In this document: piece by piece, positions 13,934 through 58,718 of the stretch
Layout of the letters: each line of letters starts with the position of its first letter
Position numbering within the stretch: the stretch's first letter is position 1
NCBI GenBank assembly: GCA_020053375.1
Contig: JAGVNG010000017.1
Coordinates: forward strand, 26,780-90,779
DNA length: 64,000 nt
DNA from: Nanobdellota archaeon
GTDB taxonomy: Archaea > Nanobdellota > Nanobdellia > Pacearchaeales > GW2011-AR1
Direction of reading: 5' to 3'
Notes under the pieces: model-generated
What the model was told of the DNA's origin: nothing
Database searches by the model: none
Seen by the model: only the letters and a program-made list of their open reading frames with translations
Translations under genes and position numbers: made by a program

Positions 13934-14671
13934 TTATTTCTTTGAATAAAAATAAATTGATTGAACCTCTTTTTTGTTATTTTGAGTCAAAACCCGATGT
14001 TCTTTTGATAAAATTATCTTCCATCCCGTATCTAAAGTTTCTTTTGCCCATTGTACAGATTTTTGCCCACGATTTGCCTTAACCCAATATGAACAAGTAC
14101 AAATAATTAAATCAGATATTTGAAGCATTTCAGATTGAGACATTTCAATATTTATTATTTTTTCAATTAAATTATTATTTGTAACATATTCTGTTCCTTT
14201 TTCATAAAATGTTTTAAACCAACTAGATACTTCTCCCCAGTTATTCATAGTATCAGAAAAGAGAATTCCAAGTTCTTTCTTATTATTCTGTCTTGAAATA
14301 TCTTCTGTGTTTAAGCAAATTCTTTCAAATAAACATTCATAAGCAAATTGAATTTTATTTCTAATTTTTGGAGAATCATCTTTATCAACTTTGCATATGC
14401 AAATTCTTATTGGTTGGGTTTCAATAAATTTGTAAAAGTCATTTAAGAATTCTTTTCTTTTTTCTATTGAAACATTTGAAAACCATCTTTTTCCCTGCAT
14501 AATCATCTTCATATCAATTTTTCTTGTTGAAGTTTCAAAGTGTTTATTTAATATATTTTTAAATTCTTTAATCATATTTTCATAGTTTCCATCATGAATA
14601 GAATAACTACCAACTACTAAATCTCTTTCTTCTTTTGTTATTCCACTTTCATCAATATACCATAAAATCAT
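13934..14671 (-). CDS. DUF3800-like protein
   Basis: N-terminal MILWYIDESG characteristic of DUF3800 family members; 245 aa; opposite strand inside the otherwise co-directional RNAP/ribosomal cluster. Confidence 0.45.
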   Translation of the reverse strand: MILWYIDESGITKEERDLVVGSYSIHDGNYENMIKEFKNILNKHFETSTRKIDMKMIMQGKRWFSNVSIEKRKEFLNDFYKFIETQPIRICICKVDKDDSPKIRNKIQFAYECLFERICLNTEDISRQNNKKELGILFSDTMNNWGEVSSWFKTFYEKGTEYVTNNNLIEKIINIEMSQSEMLQISDLIICTCSYWVKANRGQKSVQWAKETLDTGWKIILSKEHRVLTQNNKKEVQSIYFYSKK

Positions 14672-24775: not shown

Positions 24776-25009
24776 ATGGCAAATATAACATTGTCTGTTC
24801 CGGAAGAATTAATGAAAAAAATGAAATTGTTCAGGGAAATAAGATGGAGTGAGGTAGCTAGACGCTCAATAGAGGAAAGAATTGCTGATTTAGAAACCAT
24901 GAACAAAATCGCTTCTAAGAGCAAGTTGACGAAAGAAGATGTTGAAGAGATTGGGAAAAGGATAAAAAGCAGAATGACTAAAACATTCTATGAACACGAT
25001 AGCAATTGA
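24776..25009 (+). CDS. vapB: VapB-like antitoxin (ribbon-helix-helix/CopG-like)
   Basis: 77 aa, MANITLSVPEELMKKMK...WSEVARRSIEERI pattern; overlaps PIN gene by 20 nt. Confidence 0.55.
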   Translation: MANITLSVPEELMKKMKLFREIRWSEVARRSIEERIADLETMNKIASKSKLTKEDVEEIGKRIKSRMTKTFYEHDSN

Positions 25010-25415
25010 TACAAACGTCATAATTTCTGCTCTTCTTAAGGAAGGAATAACAAGAAAGATATTATTAGATTACAAATTCAATTTCATATTCCCTGAATAT
25101 GGTTTAAAAGAAATTTATTTTTATAGAGACTATGTAATAAAGAAATCTGGAATAAAAGATTCTGAATTTGATGTGTTAATGTTAAGATTATTTAAATATG
25201 TAAAATTAGTTCCTCTGCATATTATTAAAAAATTTAGAAAACGTGCAGATGAAATAATGAAAAAAATAGATAAGAAAGATACGGTATTTATTGCAACATC
25301 TCTAGCTTTTAAATGTCCAATTTGGTCTGATGACAGACATTTCAAATTACGAAAAGAAATTAAAGTATATAATACCCAAGAATTCATAAATCTTATGCTC
25401 GATAAGCCAAGATAA
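24990..25415 (+). CDS. vapC: VapC PIN-domain toxin
   Basis: IAIDTNVIISAL (first acidic residue), later FIATSL and WSDDRHF acidic positions of a PIN domain. Confidence 0.75.
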   Translation: MNTIAIDTNVIISALLKEGITRKILLDYKFNFIFPEYGLKEIYFYRDYVIKKSGIKDSEFDVLMLRLFKYVKLVPLHIIKKFRKRADEIMKKIDKKDTVFIATSLAFKCPIWSDDRHFKLRKEIKVYNTQEFINLMLDKPR

Positions 25416-35377: not shown

Positions 35378-38239
35378 TTATAGTTTCAAGCTAATAATCT
35401 TCGATATGCCATCGTGCATGCTTATACCATAGATATTAGTTGCATTTGATATTATCTCATCATTGTGGCTTATCACGATATACTGTCCTTTCTGCATATA
35501 TTTGCTTAGCAGGTTTGCAAGCCTTTCCGAGTTCCTCTTGTCAAGGGCAGCATCTATTTCATCAAGGATGTAGAAACAATATGGACTAAGTTCCTGTATC
35601 GCGAAAATAAGAGAGATAGCAACTAAAGTCTGCTCTCCTCCCGACAAGGAAGTAACATCAAGATATTTTCCATGTCCTGTCTTTACAAGAATATTAACGC
35701 CTGCCTCAAAAGGCTCCTTTGGATTTTCCAATTCAAGAGATACCTGTCCTTTTGTGCTTACCTGCGAGAAATTCCTCAAGAAAGTTTCGTTAAGAGCGTT
35801 CAGTGTTTTTATGAAGGTCTTCTTTTTTTTAATGTCTATCTCCTGAATTATTTTTAGTATGCTTTCCTTTTCCTTTGCAATTATCTCTGTCTTTTCCCTT
35901 ACTGAATCATATTCCTTTTTTACGGAATCATATACTTCCAATGCACGCATATTAACTGTTCCTATCTGGGATATCATTTCTTCTGTCTTTGAAAGCCTTT
36001 CAACAAGGATTTCTCGGCTTGACTTGATTATTTCAATTCCATCATAAACCAGCATTTCTATGCTGAAGTTCTCGATTCCAGCATCTGCCTTTGCCTTTTC
36101 TATCTTGAAGTTATTCATAGCCTGCTCAATATTCTGAACTACGTTTTGCTTTGAAGAAATTTGAATCTCACTCTCGCGTATTCTTTTGCTGAGTGTGTCC
36201 CTATCTGCAATCAGCTTCTGGAATTTTCTGGTTAATTCTTCTTCCTGCTCTTTCTTCTTCTCAAGTGTCTCCTGTTTGCCCTCAATATCCTCTTTTAATC
36301 CGTAAATTTCGTCGTTCAAATCTTCTTCATCTCTTGCTATCTGCTTCAATGCTATTTTTGCACGTTCAAGCTCTCTCTGCTTGAAAGAGATTTCAGAGCT
36401 TATGTTTTCTTCGCTTCGCATGGAAATTTCCTGGACTTCGACCCTTACAATCTCGTATTTCTGCTCAACATTTGCAGAGTCATCAAAGCTTTTTTCAAGC
36501 CTTTTCCTTATGTCTTCCAATTCTGATATTTCTCCTTTAAGATTGTCCAATTTTTCCTGAATTTTTTTGAGAGCAGTCTTCTTTTCATCCACCCCTGAAA
36601 TTTTTATGACATCACCTTCTCTTTTCGAAACTTCTATGTTCATCTGCTCTATATCTTTTGTCAAAACCTCTCGCCTAGAATATATCTCAGCTAGTTCCTT
36701 GTCAGAATCTGCAATTTCACTTTTCAGTTTTTCAACTCTTGGAAATATCTCCTTGTGTATGTGTTCCATGTGGTCTTTTGTTATTTTATTCTTGCATACT
36801 GGACACACATCCATCTTTGATATTTTCTCCATCAGATTATTAGCTTTTTCTATCTCTTTCTCATTGGAGTATGAAACCTTTTCAAGCTCTATCTCCTTTT
36901 TAGCCAGTTCTCCAAGAAGCTTTTTTTTGTTTACAATTGAAATCCTAAGGTTTTCAAGCTTGCCTCTGTCCGCACCCTTATCAAACAATTCATGATAAGA
37001 AGATTCCATCTGTCTGACTAGCAATGCAGACTCATTTGAGTTTGCCTGGAAGAGATTTTTCTTGTCTTCAATTCTTTCTCTTATTGACTTAAGTTCTGAT
37101 TTTATTGTATAGAATTTTTTCCTTTCTTCCTCCAATTTTTCAAGTTCCTTCTTTTTTAAGACAATGTCCCTCTCTTTTTTTGTCTTTGGAGAAGCGCCTG
37201 CAAGATCTTTTATCGACTGCGCGTTCTCGTCTATTGAATGCTTGAGTTCCTGCTTCTGTTTTATAATGGATGAGATTTTGGACTGAAAGTTCTCAAGCCT
37301 TACTCCCATTCCAGCAAGCTCTGCCCTTATATTCGCGATTTCTTGGTTTAGGCTTTCCTGCTGAATTCCTGTTGTTTTTTGAATAACTGCGTTAATATCT
37401 GCAATTTTTGATTCAAAACTTCTTATAGCTGCTTCCAGTTCCATTATCTCTTTCTTTACCTTGTCTATTTCCTTGTTTCTTCCAGCAATTTCCTCATTTA
37501 TATGTTCCAGTTCCTTTTTTCTTTTTGTCAAATCAAAGTGTATTATGCTTGCCTTAAATTTTTTCACATCCGCCTCAAGCTTCTTGAATCTCAGCGCCTG
37601 CTGTCTTTCCTTTTCAAGATTATTTAAGTAAGATGTTCTCTCTCTAAGGATTGCAAGAACTTCTTTCAGTTTTTCTTCTGTTTTTTCAAGTTCGTGCAAC
37701 GACTTCTCCTTTCTGGACTCGTATACAGATATTCCCGCAACTTCCTCTATTATTTTTCTCCTGTCTTCGTTATGCATTCGCACAAAATTCTGGATTTCTC
37801 CCTGAAGGATTATATTAAATCCATTTGGGTCTATTCCAGCCTGTGCAAGAAGAGACAAAATTTCCTGTCTTGTCTTTACTTCATCATTTAATTTGTATAT
37901 GCTTTGTCCGTTTTTTCTTACTATTCTTTTTACGGACACCTCAGCAGAATCGTAAGGGGTGGAAAAGCCCTTGTCAGAGTTGTCAAAAACAACCTCAACC
38001 ATTGCTTCCTTTGCGGGGGAGGCTTCCTTTGTTCCGAAGAAAATAAGATTGCCAGCCTTTGCTGCCCTCATCGATTTACTGCTTAATCTTCCAAGAACAA
38101 AGCACAGCGCATCAGAGACATTGCTTTTGCCAGAGCCATTTGGACCAACAATAACATTTATTCCTTCCGTAAATGGTATTTCTGTCTTTCTTGGAAAACT
38201 TTTGAAGCCATGCATCACCAGTTTCTTGATATAAACCAT
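35378..38239 (-). CDS. smc: SMC-family ATPase with Rad50-like CPVC zinc hook in place of a hinge domain
   Basis: N-terminal FKSF...VIVGPNGSGKSNVSDALCFVLG, Q-loop ILQGEI, C-terminal LSGGEQTLVAISLIFAIQ...FYILDEIDAALD (all SMC-type); at the midpoint KMDVCPVCKNKITKDH; no Gly-rich hinge; 953 aa. Confidence 0.8.
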   Translation of the reverse strand: MVYIKKLVMHGFKSFPRKTEIPFTEGINVIVGPNGSGKSNVSDALCFVLGRLSSKSMRAAKAGNLIFFGTKEASPAKEAMVEVVFDNSDKGFSTPYDSAEVSVKRIVRKNGQSIYKLNDEVKTRQEILSLLAQAGIDPNGFNIILQGEIQNFVRMHNEDRRKIIEEVAGISVYESRKEKSLHELEKTEEKLKEVLAILRERTSYLNNLEKERQQALRFKKLEADVKKFKASIIHFDLTKRKKELEHINEEIAGRNKEIDKVKKEIMELEAAIRSFESKIADINAVIQKTTGIQQESLNQEIANIRAELAGMGVRLENFQSKISSIIKQKQELKHSIDENAQSIKDLAGASPKTKKERDIVLKKKELEKLEEERKKFYTIKSELKSIRERIEDKKNLFQANSNESALLVRQMESSYHELFDKGADRGKLENLRISIVNKKKLLGELAKKEIELEKVSYSNEKEIEKANNLMEKISKMDVCPVCKNKITKDHMEHIHKEIFPRVEKLKSEIADSDKELAEIYSRREVLTKDIEQMNIEVSKREGDVIKISGVDEKKTALKKIQEKLDNLKGEISELEDIRKRLEKSFDDSANVEQKYEIVRVEVQEISMRSEENISSEISFKQRELERAKIALKQIARDEEDLNDEIYGLKEDIEGKQETLEKKKEQEEELTRKFQKLIADRDTLSKRIRESEIQISSKQNVVQNIEQAMNNFKIEKAKADAGIENFSIEMLVYDGIEIIKSSREILVERLSKTEEMISQIGTVNMRALEVYDSVKKEYDSVREKTEIIAKEKESILKIIQEIDIKKKKTFIKTLNALNETFLRNFSQVSTKGQVSLELENPKEPFEAGVNILVKTGHGKYLDVTSLSGGEQTLVAISLIFAIQELSPYCFYILDEIDAALDKRNSERLANLLSKYMQKGQYIVISHNDEIISNATNIYGISMHDGISKIISLKL

Positions 38240-38510: not shown

Positions 38511-38597
38511 AATATAAAATTGGTTCTCCGAAGAATAGGTTAATCCTATAAGAAAGGGTTCTGTGAAATCTTCGGTTGATAAAATTGATAAAAAAAT

Positions 38598-38744
38598 TTA
38601 ATATTTCTTCCTTGGTTCTTTATCCCATCTTGCTGATTTACACTTTGGGCAGATTAAAGGTTTTTCCTTGCTAGAACGGGGTTGCCAAATATAACTGCAG
38701 TTATTACACTTATATCCTTTAACTTTAATTTCTACTTCTGGCAT
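38598..38744 (-). CDS. Small zinc-ribbon protein (48 aa, below ORF-track cutoff)
   Basis: Hand translation MPEVEIKVKGYKCNNCSYIWQPRSSKEKPLICPKCKSARWDKEPRKKY: CxxC...CxxC. Confidence 0.3.
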   Translation of the reverse strand: MPEVEIKVKGYKCNNCSYIWQPRSSKEKPLICPKCKSARWDKEPRKKY

Positions 38745-38838
38745 GAAGTTTATAATAGTTCTAACTATTTAAATGTTACTATACAAAGTTATACTTTACA
38801 ATAGAAATGTTTATATAGTAGGTATTACTATATAAAGT

Positions 38839-39735
38839 ATGAATAAACAAAGTAATAAAGGATATAAAAACATAAGTTATCATAAACCAAAAGAATGTCC
38901 TTATTGTAAGAACAAGAACATTGTTAAGTTTGGATATAGATATAATTGCACGAAGAAAAAGCAACGTTGGAAATGTAAAGATTGTTTTAAACTCTGGGTT
39001 ATAGAAGATGGTTTTTGGAAGATGAAAAAGACAAGAGAGTTGATAACTCAATGTTTAAATTTGTATATGAACGGAATGTCTTTAAGGAAAGTTGCAAGGC
39101 ATATCAATCAATTTTCAGAAGTAAAGACGACTTATAGAAGCGTTCATAATTGGTTAATGAAGTATAGTTTTATGCTTAATCCTTTTTCTCAAACAATAGA
39201 TTATGATTTATCAAGAGTTTATCATGTTGATGAGATTTTTGTTAAGTGTAAGGGTGAACAACATTACTTTTGGGATATTATAGACAGAGATACAAGAGTT
39301 TTAGTTGCTAATCACTACTCAACTAAAAGAGATGGCAGGAGTGCAAGAACATTATTCTTGAAAGTCAAAAATCCACCAATGAGATTATTTTCTGATGGCT
39401 TGCAAGGATATAGAAAAGCATTTAGAAAAGTTTGGGGGCAGAAAACAAGAAGGCAGGATAGATTAATCTACACAAGATTAAAGCAAAGCCAAGATAGAAG
39501 AAATAACATAGTTGAAAGAATACAAGGAACAATCAGAGAAAGAGTAAAGGTTATGCGGGGATTTAAGGCAATTTGGAGTGCTAAAGCATTTCTTGAATTG
39601 TTTGCAGTCTATTATAACTTCTTGCGTTATCACGAAGGTATAGATAGCACACCAATAGAAAAAGCAGGAATTAACCTTAATCTCGAAGGCAACCAATGGC
39701 TAAATCTGATTTATAGGAGTAAGGGAATATTTTAA
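38839..39735 (+). mobile_element. IS6-family transposase gene with N-terminal zinc finger (IS ends not resolved)
   Basis: CPYCKN...CTKKKQRWKCKDC zinc finger, DDE-type core, C-terminal RNNIVERIQGTIRERVKVMRGFKAIWSAKAFLELF block characteristic of IS6/IS26-family transposases. Confidence 0.7.
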
Positions 39736-40182
39736 CTAAAATAATGAACCCTTAAAAACCGAATCCAATTTAATCAGAGAATCAAAATCAACTTTAAATA
39801 TAGAGCCCATATTAACATTGAGATTTATAGCAATATTCTTTCTCTCTTTAGATTTTGTAGGACTTTCTATCAATTCAATGCCCTCAGAAGTGCATTTTAT
39901 ATCTTTTCTAATTCCTGAAAGGTCTTTGTAAGAGTAAGTTATCAATCCTTTTTGCTCAAGAAATTCCATAGATTGTTTTACTCTTTCTTTATCAAAATCA
40001 CTAGCCTCAATAATCTTTAGTTGATTGGTCTTTTTTTCTTTGTAAATATATGCTAAGATTTTTATTGAATCTTCTATTATAGCCATATAATTTGATAATG
40101 GGTATTGTTTATAAGTTTTATTAAGATTCTCTTTATTGGTCTTTTCCGAAATATGTTTTAGTTTCAATCTTGTCTGCAACAA
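39736..40182 (-). CDS. Winged-helix protein (probable true start near 40086)
   Basis: ...KTNQLKIIEASDFDKERVKQSMEFLEQKGLITYSYKD... wHTH-like; stop codon abuts the transposase stop. Confidence 0.4.
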   Translation of the reverse strand: MLQTRLKLKHISEKTNKENLNKTYKQYPLSNYMAIIEDSIKILAYIYKEKKTNQLKIIEASDFDKERVKQSMEFLEQKGLITYSYKDLSGIRKDIKCTSEGIELIESPTKSKERKNIAINLNVNMGSIFKVDFDSLIKLDSVFKGSLF

Positions 40183-40789
40183 GCTCTAAACCATATTTAT
40201 CTAAATCATCACAGATGTCTTGAAAGTTTTCTTTAATAAACTTTAACGCCTCTTCAGAATTTATTTCTCCCTTTGGAAATTCTAGATGTTTCATTACTTC
40301 TAGAGCATAATTCTCTATATCTTCATCCTTTAGGTCTTCCCATTCATCTTCTTCTTCATTAATTTCATTTTCGTCAGGTCCGGACTCATAAGAATCTTTT
40401 GCATCTTCAAACCAGTTGGTTTTTATTTCAAAAAAGTGATTAACACCATTTAATGGGCAACTTAATATAAGAAAAGGAATTTCCCCTATATTTTGCTCTA
40501 AAATTCTTTCCGACTTAAAATTTTCTGGCTCAGTAACATCCTCATTTTTTACTTCCAAAGCACATAGATAAAACATTTTTACACCCATCTCTTTTGCTTG
40601 CTCTAAGAAAATTGCTAAATCCTCATCCCACTCTATTGCATTTTCTATATTCAACTTTCTTCTTGCAATATCGTAAAATTCTTCTAACATATCCTGTTCT
40701 TTATTTTTAATCTCAAATAATTTTATGCTATTCAATTTACAAAAATCTATTATCTTCTGTTTAACTGATTTTAAATTTTCATCACTCAT
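40133..40789 (-). CDS. Acidic hypothetical protein
   Basis: 218 aa, Asp/Glu-rich (DENEINEEEDEWEDLKDEDIENY); 8-nt overlap with upstream gene. Confidence 0.45.
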   Translation of the reverse strand: MSDENLKSVKQKIIDFCKLNSIKLFEIKNKEQDMLEEFYDIARRKLNIENAIEWDEDLAIFLEQAKEMGVKMFYLCALEVKNEDVTEPENFKSERILEQNIGEIPFLILSCPLNGVNHFFEIKTNWFEDAKDSYESGPDENEINEEEDEWEDLKDEDIENYALEVMKHLEFPKGEINSEEALKFIKENFQDICDDLDKYGLELVADKIETKTYFGKDQ

Positions 40790-41666
40790 CTTTTTTCTCC
40801 AAATCTTCTTCGTAGAGAGTTATTTCTTGCTTACAATGTGGGCAGTCTGTTTCAATACCTTCCTTTAAGTTATCTTCTTCATCTAATTCTAAGGTAATAA
40901 CTTTGCCACATTCAGGGCATACAAAATCTGTTTCTTCCTCTTCACCTTCTTCTGTTTTGTATTTTTTTAATTTCGGCACCTTACCTTTTACAGAAGAAAC
41001 TTTTTGTTCAATCGTATCATATAAGTCCTTTATGCTTGTATCTTCATTTGCCATATCTTTATCTGGGAGATTATCATCTGCAGTATCAATATTAATCTCC
41101 TTCCAACCAACTCTCTTTTTCTCAATAGTTTCCTTCAAACTTTTTTCCCTTTTTGTTAATTTGCTACTTCCTGTCTTTACTTCAACAAAAATGACTCGGT
41201 CAATTTTATCTTCATGCAAACCTTGAAAAACAATATAATCCACTGGTTGTCCTAAAAAGTGCATATCAGAAGGCTCATAAGGTAACTTTTTTAAGAAAGG
41301 GATAAATCTCTCAATGAATTTTCCGACTAAACTCCTTCTTGAACTAGAAACTGATTTTGACCTTATGATTTTTTCAGAGTCTTTGAATAATCTTTTTAAT
41401 TCTTCTATGTCTGAAATGTATTTAACCTGCCATTCTTTTGCCAATTTTTCTAAATGAGTTTTATTCTCCTCTTTAATCTTTTCTAATAGAGAATTACCTT
41501 TCTCTATTTTTACTTCATAATCCTTCTCAAGATTAGCTATTTTCTTTTCCCATTGAGCATTTAATACAGATTCTCTATCTCCAAATTTCTGTTTTTGTGT
41601 TAAATATCTCCCAATGAAATATCCTATAATCAAGGAAATAATGATAATAATTATCCATTCAATCAT
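40782..41666 (-). CDS. Membrane-anchored coiled-coil protein with PD-(D/E)xK nuclease-like domain and C-terminal zinc ribbon (RmuC-like architecture)
   Basis: N-terminal TM helix IIIIIISLIIGYFIG, long Lys/Glu coiled coil, VDYIVFQG...IDRVIFVEVKTGSSKLTKRE (D...E-V-K core), C-terminal CPECG...CPHCK. Confidence 0.5.
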   Translation of the reverse strand: MIEWIIIIIISLIIGYFIGRYLTQKQKFGDRESVLNAQWEKKIANLEKDYEVKIEKGNSLLEKIKEENKTHLEKLAKEWQVKYISDIEELKRLFKDSEKIIRSKSVSSSRRSLVGKFIERFIPFLKKLPYEPSDMHFLGQPVDYIVFQGLHEDKIDRVIFVEVKTGSSKLTKREKSLKETIEKKRVGWKEINIDTADDNLPDKDMANEDTSIKDLYDTIEQKVSSVKGKVPKLKKYKTEEGEEEETDFVCPECGKVITLELDEEDNLKEGIETDCPHCKQEITLYEEDLEKKDE

Positions 41667-41716
41667 AATTTTAACAAAGAAAGCTGTTATAAAAATTTAT
41701 CTAAAATAATTATTTT

Positions 41717-42016
41717 TCATTCCAAATACTTTTTTCTTGCGATTTTCTTCCTAGTCTTTTTACCCTTCCTTAATTCAGCTTTATCTAACTGAATATATAC
41801 AAAAACAAAAAAGGCTATTCCAATAAAGTAAATAACAAGTGGAATCATAAGTCCTACTTCTTCAGGTGGAAAAAGAAGAAAAGATATAATCAGAGAGGGT
41901 ATTATCCCAAATATGATCCAAATTATACATGACATAATAATAAATTCACTCCAACCCCAAGGATTATCAGAAACATAGCTATTATAATATATTGGATTAG
42001 GGTGATTCCATCCCAT
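41717..42016 (-). CDS. Small membrane protein (2 TM)
   Basis: Two hydrophobic helices, basic C-terminus. Confidence 0.4.
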   Translation of the reverse strand: MGWNHPNPIYYNSYVSDNPWGWSEFIIMSCIIWIIFGIIPSLIISFLLFPPEEVGLMIPLVIYFIGIAFFVFVYIQLDKAELRKGKKTRKKIARKKYLE

Positions 42017-42084
42017 CTTGTTCTAATTAGTTCATTGTTTTTATTTGTTTAGGTCTTTTAGAGAATTAGAAAGTTTTAAATTAA

Positions 42085-42378
42085 TCAACCGATAACTTCA
42101 CAGAACCTAAGAAAGTTATCTTTAAGAGGATTGCCTTCAAGTGAAACAAAATTAATTTTTTTATTTTTTAGGTAAAATTTCTCCTGCTGAGATTTTATTA
42201 TTTCCTCAGCCTGTTCATAGTTTATTACATTGCCAGAAAATTTGGTTGTGATGAAATTTAAAACTAGAGAAGATTCTGCATAGATACATAGAGCTAATAA
42301 TGATTTGAGTACTAATTTTTTGATGTTCTTTCTAACTTTTGTCATATATTTTGTATCAAACCCTCTATATTTAAGCAT
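42085..42378 (-). CDS. Hypothetical small protein with hydrophobic N-terminal segment
   Basis: 97-aa ORF. Confidence 0.35.
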   Translation of the reverse strand: MLKYRGFDTKYMTKVRKNIKKLVLKSLLALCIYAESSLVLNFITTKFSGNVINYEQAEEIIKSQQEKFYLKNKKINFVSLEGNPLKDNFLRFCEVIG

Positions 42379-42408: not shown

Positions 42409-43080
42409 TTATGCTATTTTTGCCTGTTCTAACTTTGCGGAGGCATTTTTCCAGGTGGCCCATGTTTTTCTGAACAAGCCTTCATCTTTGTATTTATGGG
42501 CGTGCTTTTCCAGGAATTTAATAGTGTATGGGTCAGAGGCATAACCTGAGCCTATCTCATGTCCGTATTTCTCTTTCAAAAGGGTCATTTCCTTCTCACG
42601 AACATCTTTTGCTATTATTGATGCTGCCGAGACTGCGACATGATTTACGTCTGCCTTGTGCTCGCAAACAACTTCAAGATTTGACAAGTCATTTATTTTT
42701 GTCTGCAGAAAATCCCTCCACTTGTTTATTCCTGTTGACGGGCAATCGAGAACAACTTTTATTCTATCATATCCCTTGTTTATCCTGTTTATTATTTCCG
42801 CGCATGCTATTGCTTCTACTTCATTTAGTTTTGTTCCACTTAAATTATTGCTTTCAATTTCGTCGGGATAAACAATAACAACCTCAAAGTTCTCTGCTTT
42901 CTCTCTTATGACATCAGCCAAAAAAGCTCTTCGTTTTGGAGTAAGCTGTTTGCTGTCTTTAACCCCAATCTTTTTGAATTCTTTTTCCATCTCATCATTA
43001 ATAAGGCATCCCGCAAGAACCATTGGACCAATCACAGGCCCTCTCCCTGCATCATCTATCCCGAGAATTAATTGAGACAT
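42409..43080 (-). CDS. rnhB: Ribonuclease HII
   Basis: LGIDDAGRGPVIGPMVLAG N-terminal motif and length (223 aa). Confidence 0.9.
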   Translation of the reverse strand: MSQLILGIDDAGRGPVIGPMVLAGCLINDEMEKEFKKIGVKDSKQLTPKRRAFLADVIREKAENFEVVIVYPDEIESNNLSGTKLNEVEAIACAEIINRINKGYDRIKVVLDCPSTGINKWRDFLQTKINDLSNLEVVCEHKADVNHVAVSAASIIAKDVREKEMTLLKEKYGHEIGSGYASDPYTIKFLEKHAHKYKDEGLFRKTWATWKNASAKLEQAKIA

Positions 43081-57634: not shown

Positions 57635-58123
57635 TTATTTCAGCATATTCTTTATATGTGAGACAAAAAGGGTAGCATTATGCATTGAATCCTCAGCGGG
57701 ATCCTTATTTGCTTGCGGAAAAGTCTTGTATGTGAATTTCCCCCTTTTTGATTTTTCATCCTTCATTATTTGCAGTAAATCTTCTGCCCTTATTAGCATT
57801 TTTTCATAAGCTTCCAGAATATGCTTGTCTAATTTTCCGCTGCCTACAAATATCCTCTTGAATTCATCATATGCTTTATTATGAATGAATGGAGCAGAGA
57901 TTTTTATTCCTGCGTTCAATAAAGCAGCCCTTGCAGAATAAAAGAGGGAATAATAAGAATGGTTTATGACTGAACTGTAAAATGTTGTTTTTGCGGGAAC
58001 AGCCAGATTATTCTTTAAAACGTCTTCTTCGCTTATTCGTTTTAGGGCCTTGGCTGCAAGAAGTTCATTATCTGCCCTCTCCAATAAAAATTTAACCTCT
58101 GAATCCATGTTTAATTGCCTCAT
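57635..58123 (-). CDS. HEPN-domain protein (toxin component of HEPN/MNT pair)
   Basis: ...NHSYYSLFYSARAALLNAGIKISAPFIHNKAYDEF... resembles the HEPN helical core; overlaps the MNT gene by 32 nt. Confidence 0.5.
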   Translation of the reverse strand: MRQLNMDSEVKFLLERADNELLAAKALKRISEEDVLKNNLAVPAKTTFYSSVINHSYYSLFYSARAALLNAGIKISAPFIHNKAYDEFKRIFVGSGKLDKHILEAYEKMLIRAEDLLQIMKDEKSKRGKFTYKTFPQANKDPAEDSMHNATLFVSHIKNMLK

Positions 58124-58718
58124 TTATTATTGCATAATATTGTGAGCCACCATAGAATATAAGATTATGCCTTACAGATTCCTTACTGTAATTTTCTTCT
58201 TCATCCAAGAGCATATCTAAAAATTGCTTGCTTGTAAAAACATAAGGATGAACTGGGGGGATGCTTGTCTCGCTTTCATGGCTTATTTGGGCATAGATGC
58301 TCTTGGGATTAACTTTATCATCACAAATAACAGCAATATCCAAATCAGATTCTTTATTTTGGGTTTTCTTAGCATAACTTCCTGTAAGCAGGAGAATAAA
58401 AAATTTGGTTGGAATTTTGTTTCTTATATTTTCTATAATCTGCAGGGGAATCTGCTTTTGATTCCAAGAAATATACTCATGCAAAAATCCCATATAGCTT
58501 TGTGCAGAAACTGAAGACAGATTAAGAATGTAAAGAATAGACTTGCCTACTTTTTCGGTAACAATAATCTTTTCTTTTTCCAGCCTTTTCAAGGCGCTAT
58601 AAATATATCCCTTTGAGCGATTTTTAGTTATTTTTTGGATTTCAGAATATGTTAATTTCTTCCAAGGTTCTTTTAAAAAAGCCGAATCAATATGGTATTG
58701 TTCTTTTAGTATTTCCAT
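58092..58718 (-). CDS. Minimal nucleotidyltransferase (MNT) with N-terminal winged helix
   Basis: LLLTGSYAKKTQNKESDLDIAVI = GS...D.D Pol-beta-type NTase motif; N-terminal wHTH. Confidence 0.7.
   Translation of the reverse strand: MEILKEQYHIDSAFLKEPWKKLTYSEIQKITKNRSKGYIYSALKRLEKEKIIVTEKVGKSILYILNLSSVSAQSYMGFLHEYISWNQKQIPLQIIENIRNKIPTKFFILLLTGSYAKKTQNKESDLDIAVICDDKVNPKSIYAQISHESETSIPPVHPYVFTSKQFLDMLLDEEENYSKESVRHNLIFYGGSQYYAIINEAIKHGFRG

Follow-up and report, generated by a model that had tools for sequence, protein, structure and literature searches.

An SMC orthologue of Pacearchaeota-lineage DPANN archaea with a probable Rad50-type zinc hook in place of the hinge

The hinge is regarded as a defining and universally conserved part of SMC (structural maintenance of chromosomes) proteins, and roles beyond dimerisation, such as the binding of DNA, a gate for DNA entry and contacts made in loop extrusion, have been proposed for it. 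The question of what else might stand at the tip of the SMC arms is raised by the smc gene in a 64,000-nt stretch (hereafter the window) of a Nanobdellota archaeon genome (GenBank assembly GCA_020053375.1, contig JAGVNG010000017.1, positions 26,780 to 90,779 of the forward strand). The open reading frame (ORF; 35378..38239, minus strand, ATG start) encodes a protein of 953 aa, for which a preliminary description, made from the sequence alone, had proposed SMC-type heads joined to a Rad50-type hook. The analysis given below indicates that this protein is probably an SMC (condensin-type) orthologue of the Pacearchaeota lineage of DPANN archaea, in which the hinge has been replaced by a Rad50-type zinc hook and which would dimerise through zinc. 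Proteins of the hook type are annotated in public databases as 'chromosome segregation (SMC family) protein'.

The head domains proved to be of the SMC type and not of the Rad50 type, as had been proposed. Pfam SMC_N covered aa 3–946 (E=1.6e-57), all ATPase motifs were intact and invariant across a 45-sequence alignment of the hook-type family, and the D-loop DEIDAALD, verified within FYILDEIDAALD, was indeed that of an SMC. Sequence matches among solved structures were headed by the Pyrococcus SMC heads (5XEI, 1e-103), followed by bacterial and eukaryotic SMCs, with the Rad50 heads at 1e-15; a Foldseek search with the full-length model was led by condensin Smc4/Smc2, Smc5/6 and the Pyrococcus SMC, with 49–50% identity over the N-terminal head. 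Among the NCBIfam models, the SMC equivalogs TIGR02169 and TIGR02168 scored 542.5 and 507.8 bits, respectively, compared to 123.1 bits for the model of archaea-specific SMC-related proteins (ASRP; NF045487), 71–110 for the Rad50 models, 46 for SbcC and 41 for RecN. Both SMC scores remained below the equivalog cut-offs (729.4 for TIGR02169 and 567.35 for TIGR02168). The TIGR02169 alignment was split in two, the first part ending at aa 475 (profile position 481) and the second restarting past the hinge region, and its score falls under the cut-off because the hinge is replaced by a CPxC loop of ~12 aa.

The absence of the hinge, also claimed at the outset, was evident in every search made for it. 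Pfam SMC_hinge (PF06470) gave no match in the 953-aa protein even at E<=10 and was not among the 25 most-matched Pfam families listed for 45 family members, while it was found at 1e-31 to 1e-34 in the closest relatives that bear a hinge, among them short proteins of 943–963 aa, which served as a positive control. A local hinge hidden Markov model (HMM), seeded from Pfam-validated hinges and run on 151 sequences (the query and 150 representatives), matched 99 of them, with no hook-type sequence among the matches. In the AlphaFold2 model of the full protein only helices were seen between the heads, with no globular middle domain. Since the same methods find hinges in close relatives at 1e-31 to 1e-34, the absence is not due to poor search sensitivity.

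The length of the protein agrees with this: it is 180–213 aa below that of the sister SMCs of 1133–1166 aa, close to the deficit of about 200 aa first estimated. Pairwise profile alignments with one of the sister proteins (P0160) were collinear on both sides of the gap, aa 1–476 corresponding to 1–480 and aa 501–952 to 669–1132, and the P0160 hinge, at 502–655, falls between these two stretches. As judged from the alignments, some 165–170 aa, i.e., the hinge and ~19 aa of coil on its N-terminal side, have been swapped for the hook loop, with the arms otherwise kept. Both arm strands (aa 157–475 and 488–827) were predicted by AlphaFold2 as near-continuous helix with a pLDDT of about 75–90. Each strand contained a low-confidence break (aa 346–354, 37178–37204, and aa 605–614, 36398–36427), both located ~125 aa from the apex and resembling an elbow or a conserved coiled-coil discontinuity. 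Within the core hook clade the arm lengths were tightly kept, with 441–454 aa from Walker A to the hook and 385–391 aa from the hook to the signature motif. This constancy fits the arm-length constraints described for Bacillus subtilis Smc (PMC5344682).

Much shorter arms were observed in several 'mini' SMCs that do possess a hinge, both of 943–963 aa (P0155, P0156 and P0226) and of 810–838 aa (P0206, P0210, P0223, P0227, P0232, P0236 and P0247). Total SMC lengths grouped near ~830, ~950 and ~1150 aa, which recalls the quantised functional arm lengths of B. subtilis Smc.

At the place of the hinge, the stretch KMDVCPVCKNKITKDH spans aa 475–490, with CPVC at aa 479–482, three residues from the arithmetic midpoint of the protein (476.5 of 953). 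That a CxxC motif lies in the middle of the coiled coil had been claimed, and two AlphaFold2 models place it in the tip loop. In the full-length model CPVC falls within the sole non-helical stretch (aa 476–487) linking the two arm strands, between the helices of aa 425–475 and 488–587, and a separate model of aa 425–535 (pLDDT 93.1, pTM 0.72) was predicted as a hairpin of two helices whose tip is formed by the CPVC loop. Of 120 close homologues, 119 had the motif at their midpoint, and C479, P480, C482, T487 and H490 were invariant in the 45-sequence alignment. Among representatives at 50% identity, every full-length protein of the hook clade carried CPxC, down to 38% identity. The strict pattern CP[LVI]CK[SN][KQM]IT had confirmed matches in 214 GTDB species-representative genomes, a figure which, being based on one strict peptide pattern, gives the hook-type lineage at its least. 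The 80 listed loci with this pattern were labelled nearly exclusively as Pacearchaeota, Woesearchaeota, Nanoarchaeota or Nanoarchaeia, all DPANN. Conserved to this extent, CPxC is no accident of a single sequence.

Two of the hook-type proteins, P0122 (1479 aa) and P0130 (1483 aa), contained an intein (about aa 84–563), which carries a LAGLIDADG homing endonuclease and is inserted just downstream of the Walker A P-loop, and kept the CPLC hook at aa 1005 and 1011, respectively. In a single metagenome-assembled genome (MAG; CAZOAN01) a hook-type smc was present on each of two contigs (L033, 6290–9148, and L034, 8723–11581). A duplication of the gene was considered and rejected: the two proteins are 100% identical, so the copies represent an assembly or binning duplicate rather than paralogues.

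The resemblance of the apex to the Rad50 hook was evident in the motif, CPxCxxx[I/L]Txx H, which parallels the Pyrococcus furiosus Rad50 hook motif CPVCGRELTDEH; the 953-aa protein has VCPVCKNKITKDHMEHI where the solved P. furiosus hook (1L8D) has KCPVCGRELTDEHREEL. Over a longer stretch, 1L8D reads KCPVCGRELTDEHREELL and the 953-aa protein VCPVCKNKITKDHMEHIH, with CPVC, [L/I]T, [E/D]H and the next E in common, i.e., CPVCxxx[L/I]Tx[E/D]HxE. The claimed closeness to the Rad50 zinc-hook consensus thus held for the motif and for the relatives, 20 of 45 family members being matched by Pfam Rad50_zn_hook (PF04423; best E 6.8e-6), while the 953-aa protein itself gave no match to this model. In a Foldseek search of 350,542 PDB chains with the hook model, 1L8D occupied the first and second places (E 5e-3 and 9e-3; chain A TM 0.66/0.71), human Rad50 hook the third and the PfRad50 rod the sixth. 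Sequence comparison of the hook with solved structures, using either a single sequence or a profile of 26 sequences, returned only noise, and the 1L8D match obtained in this way (E=0.28, with a collinear alignment) is not used as evidence. The assignment as a Rad50-type hook is thus well supported by motif and position; common descent with the Rad50 hooks is no more than a possibility.

The phylogenetic position was analysed with a neighbour-joining tree of the head domains (349 columns, 105 full-length representatives, 100 bootstraps, SMCs only, with no non-SMC outgroups included). The hinge-less proteins, i.e., 19 of the hook type together with four proteins of ~780–804 aa having neither hinge nor cysteines, formed a group with a bipartition bootstrap of 97/100, which was nested among the hinge-type SMCs beside an 18-member hinge-type clade. 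The labelled members of this sister clade were canonical Woesearchaeota SMCs of 1142–1166 aa, while the labelled hook-type members were Pacearchaeota or Nanoarchaeota. The suggestion of a distinct SMC-like lineage did not survive this result: the hook-type proteins are a derived clade inside canonical archaeal SMC, sister to the Woesearchaeota SMC in the head tree, and therefore represent an SMC orthologue with a replaced hinge and not a separate deep lineage. By phylogeny the 953-aa protein is thus an SMC orthologue, yet one that has no hinge and scores below the NCBIfam equivalog cut-off.

The four hook-less proteins (P0141, P0143, P0144 and P0145) lack both the hinge and any mid-protein cysteine; three of them branched inside the hook clade and P0145 at its base. 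In the Pacearchaeota MAG GCA_002780285.1 one of them was encoded in the same slot next to rnhB as the hook-type genes (see below). They look like orthologues that have secondarily lost the hook, with each arm strand ~75 aa shorter. Two of the loci with a hook-less smc are L087 (6279–8693) and L088 (6069–8483). Outside of the hook clade, seven further proteins (P0224, P0231, P0240, P0252, P0257, P0259 and P0268) had no detectable hinge or CPxC. In the tree P0224 adjoins the hinge-type P0226 and P0240 adjoins P0262, which suggests several independent losses of the hinge across SMC diversity.

Two contigs with an archaeal hook-type smc were deposited as Patescibacteria or Parcubacteria group bacteria (L036, JAHYJW010000001.1, and L041, JBAZBJ010000017.1), and a member of the Woesearchaeota sister clade (P0169) was labelled as Nitrospiraceae. 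In all three cases a DPANN contig has probably been mis-binned or mislabelled.

The smc gene is found in a conserved housekeeping slot. In 71 of 84 related loci the RNase HII gene (rnhB) was its immediate upstream neighbour on the same strand, with the genes for DnaG and EF-1alpha conserved farther downstream in the order rnhB-smc...dnaG...EF-1alpha. Clustering of the neighbours in the 84 loci returned nothing beyond rnhB, dnaG, EF-1alpha and the genes for a PCMT-like methyltransferase and an Ig-like surface protein of ~400 aa. As claimed earlier for mre11, scpA and scpB, no partner gene is adjacent: Pfam scans of ~40 ORFs in the window, including those of kleisin and ScpB size, revealed neither ScpA, ScpB, Mre11, Rad50 nor a second SMC, and none of these was detected within +-10 kb of smc in the 84 related loci. 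A regular-expression search for the ScpA N-terminal motif in 1,786 ORFs from these loci was also negative, and a kleisin was not found beside a hinge-type smc of the Woesearchaeota sister group. An ORF of 285 aa, located downstream of a hinge-type smc from Woesearchaeota, was considered as a kleisin and rejected as a secreted or membrane repeat protein.

The structural reading which we favour for the 953-aa protein is as follows. The complete SMC ATPase head and coiled-coil arms of ~300–340 residues are retained, with the short hook in the place of the hinge, and, as in Rad50, a single Zn2+ would join two protomers at their arm tips through tetrahedral coordination by two CPxC pairs. As in Smc-ScpAB, ATP would govern the engagement and disengagement of the heads, and the dimer would organise or segregate the chromosome, presumably together with a kleisin partner. 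Zinc binding by CPxC and dimerisation through the hook are suggested by the motif, its position and the analogy with Rad50, where two chains contribute two cysteines each to one zinc ion. In the hook-type family the only universal ligands are likewise two cysteines: in divergent members Y, E or A takes the place of His490, and only 27 of 71 loci have a second histidine at +16. Four ligands would therefore require two chains.

The same loop might instead form an intramolecular zinc knuckle or cap, or a redox disulfide steadying the hairpin turn, with any dimer held by contacts between arms and heads. Such an arrangement would be in line with a weak Pfam match to zf-Di19, a C2H2-type finger, at aa 475–496 (E 0.0023), with the invariance of His490 in close homologues and the nearby His493 and His495 of the 953-aa protein, and with the hook-less orthologues of the same clade, which suggest that the apex link is dispensable. 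It is nevertheless quite improbable, since no third or fourth ligand is conserved over the family, two universal ligands per chain are just the Rad50 arrangement with two chains per zinc, and both the motif with its spacing and the best structural matches point to the Rad50 hooks. Still less probable is a functional Rad50/SbcC-like ATPase for tethering or repair of double-strand breaks, with heads merely resembling those of SMC: although the apex is of the zinc-hook type and NCBIfam Rad50 models can be aligned end to end at low score (NF041034, for example, over aa 4–946), the Rad50 models remain far from their cut-offs of 700–1087 bits and from the scores of the SMC models, the PDB head matches favour SMC by a wide margin, the D-loop is that of an SMC, and the protein is nested in the SMC clade. 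The Mre11/SbcD nuclease partner of Rad50/SbcC is usually encoded adjacently, and no Mre11 or Metallophos-type partner was present next to smc in the window or in the related loci.

Membership in the ASRPs (ClsN/coalescin, Sph1/2) can be given hardly any credence. Those proteins are archaeal, with SMC-like heads and mostly with a zinc-hook motif (PMC9389158), and NF045487 does match in part; its best stretch, however, is limited to aa 17–323 and stays well below the cut-off of 300 bits, far behind the SMC equivalog model, while the arms run collinear with those of canonical SMC as far as the hinge boundaries and the heads are sister to the Woesearchaeota SMC. Equally remote is a role as the SMC-like part of a mobile element or of a defence system such as Lamassu (LmuB), Wadjet (JetC) or MADS, to which PADLOC matches (mad3 180 bits, LmuB 85, JetC 45) and a transposase-bearing insertion adjoining smc might point. 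These matches reflect generic SMC_N head similarity, far below the SMC scores, and together with the housekeeping neighbours, conserved in 71–84 loci with no defence partners, they argue against such a role; the insertion is specific to the window. The conserved synteny of smc across the lineage also speaks against it. Finally, a more far-reaching version of the favoured SMC-with-hook reading would have the hook captured from rad50, so that a single SMC/Rad50 hybrid serves both chromosome folding or segregation and Rad50-like tethering, maybe without a canonical kleisin. We regard it as unlikely. In that case the hook-less ~800-aa orthologues would have gone further still in the direction of a minimal SMC without an apex link, and neither the chemistry of the hinge nor a covalent or metal link at the apex would be fundamental to SMC function.

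The nearest precedent for the hook-type SMC is an engineered one. In the chimera Smc(Zh) the hinge of B. subtilis Smc was exchanged for the zinc hook of P. furiosus Rad50; growth was normal and the arm-length constraints were the same, and the authors concluded that chromosome segregation does not depend on how the dimerisation domain is folded (Burmann et al. 2017, PMC5344682). The reciprocal exchange, Rad50 with the MukB hinge, works in fission yeast (PMC6969161). The architecture of Smc(Zh), in which the heads and arms of an SMC are capped by a Rad50-type hook, is identical to that described here; this domain swap had previously been made only by engineering. In contrast to the chimera, the hook-type SMC is natural, fixed across an archaeal lineage (at least 214 species genomes) and known here from its sequence, and, while the hook of Smc(Zh) was transplanted from Rad50, its own may have come by capture from rad50 or by convergence. 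With the canonical archaeal SMCs (Pyrococcus 5XEI/5XNS/4I99 and the Woesearchaeota proteins of 1142–1166 aa) it shares all head motifs and the collinear antiparallel arms, but has a CPxC loop of ~12 aa instead of the ~165–170 aa that include their hinge; in some archaea scpA is found next to smc, whereas none was found adjacent to the hook-type smc. The Rad50/SbcC hooks (1L8D, 6ZFF, 5GOX) have in common with it an antiparallel coiled coil tipped by the CPxC motif, and differ in that the hook-type SMC has SMC heads, arms of SMC length homologous to SMC arms and no Mre11 nearby.

Among natural proteins, the ASRPs (ClsN/coalescin and Sph1/Sph2) are a distinct archaeal family of the SMC superfamily in which a zinc hook takes the place of the hinge (PMC9389158). 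They resemble the hook-type SMC in this replacement and in being archaeal, but are separate and more divergent. Hinge-less SMC variants explicitly without CXXC, branching with Actinobacteria, were reported from marine bacteria (Sussfeld et al. 2025, PMC12153180); these are similar to the hook-less relatives of ~780–840 aa, while the hook-type SMC differs by its conserved CXXC. No description of a natural zinc-hook SMC in DPANN was found in full-text literature searches, whose coverage excluded subscription-only papers.

With at least 214 species-level genomes carrying an apparently orthologous SMC in which a hook of ~12 residues replaces the hinge at an almost constant arm length, the lineage offers a natural counterpart of the Smc(Zh) experiment of Burmann et al. 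and a lineage-wide natural experiment on the dispensability of the SMC hinge. It argues that in the hook-type archaea the apex need only join the two arms, the arm geometry being the constrained element. A single clade provides a graded series, in which the hinge gives way to the hook and the hook to the absence of any apex link, from which the purpose of the apex can be asked, and a small, naturally hinge-free SMC usable for biochemistry and single-molecule loop-extrusion assays.

Table 1. Hook-type smc, its domains and motifs, and the adjoining insertion (positions in the window; aa numbers refer to the 953-aa protein).
Feature	Position	Strand	Basis
smc, hook type, 953 aa + stop	35378..38239	-	SMC_N, TIGR02169, Pyrococcus SMC head matches
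N-terminal half of ATPase head, aa 1-156	37772..38239	-	49-50% identity to Pyrococcus SMC N-head (Foldseek alignments)
Walker A GPNGSGKS	aa 32-39; 38123-38146	-	coordinates verified
DALCFVLG	aa 43-50	-	coordinates verified
Q-loop ILQGEI	aa 144-149; 37793-37810	-	coordinates verified
N-terminal coiled-coil arm strand, aa 157-475 (predicted)	36815..37771	-	AlphaFold2 helices H157-345, H355-416, H425-475
Apex loop MDVCPVCKNKIT, aa 476-487, with CPVC putative Zn ligands (36794-36805)	36779..36814	-	non-helical in AlphaFold2 models
C-terminal coiled-coil arm strand, aa 488-827 (predicted)	35759..36778	-	AlphaFold2 helices H488-587, H591-607, H613-730, H742-759, H765-827
C-terminal half of ATPase head, aa 828-953	35378..35758	-	aligned to Pyrococcus SMC C-head
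Signature LSGGE	aa 865-869; 35633-35647	-	coordinates verified
Walker B/D-loop FYILDEIDAALD	aa 889-900; 35540-35575	-	coordinates verified
H-loop ISHNDE	aa 923-928; 35456-35473	-	coordinates verified
~3.5-kb insertion between rnhB and smc	38557..42107	.	not in relatives, whose rnhB adjoins smc
30-nt imperfect inverted repeats bracketing the insertion	38557-38586 / 42078-42107	.	repeat search
IS6/IS240-type DDE transposase in the insertion	38839-39735	+	Pfam
Winged helix-turn-helix (wHTH) protein, 148 aa, in the insertion	39736-40182	-	Pfam
Holliday-junction-resolvase-related endonuclease with C-terminal zinc ribbons, in the insertion	40782-41666	-	Pfam
rnhB (RNase HII), conserved upstream same-strand neighbour, displaced by the insertion	42409..43080	-	adjacency in 71/84 loci

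The window as a whole is a segment of an archaeal chromosome, with genes for RNA polymerase subunits B and A', EF-2, S7, an IleRS-type protein, ArgRS, NrdR with class II ribonucleotide reductase, DnaG and RNase HII. The insertion that separates rnhB from smc (Table 1) may be a composite mobile element and also holds genes for an acidic protein of 218 aa and a small transmembrane protein. The wHTH and acidic proteins, encoded upstream of smc on the same strand, were considered as candidates for ScpB and ScpA, respectively, and rejected, because the insertion carrying them is absent from the relatives. Three further observations in the window are unrelated to smc: a gene for a PIN-domain protein (24990–25415, plus strand), another for a DUF3800 protein (13934–14671, minus strand), and a gene pair encoding a HEPN-like protein (weak match) and a nucleotidyltransferase (57635–58718, minus strand), which overlap by ~30 nt and resemble a HEPN/MNT toxin-antitoxin system.

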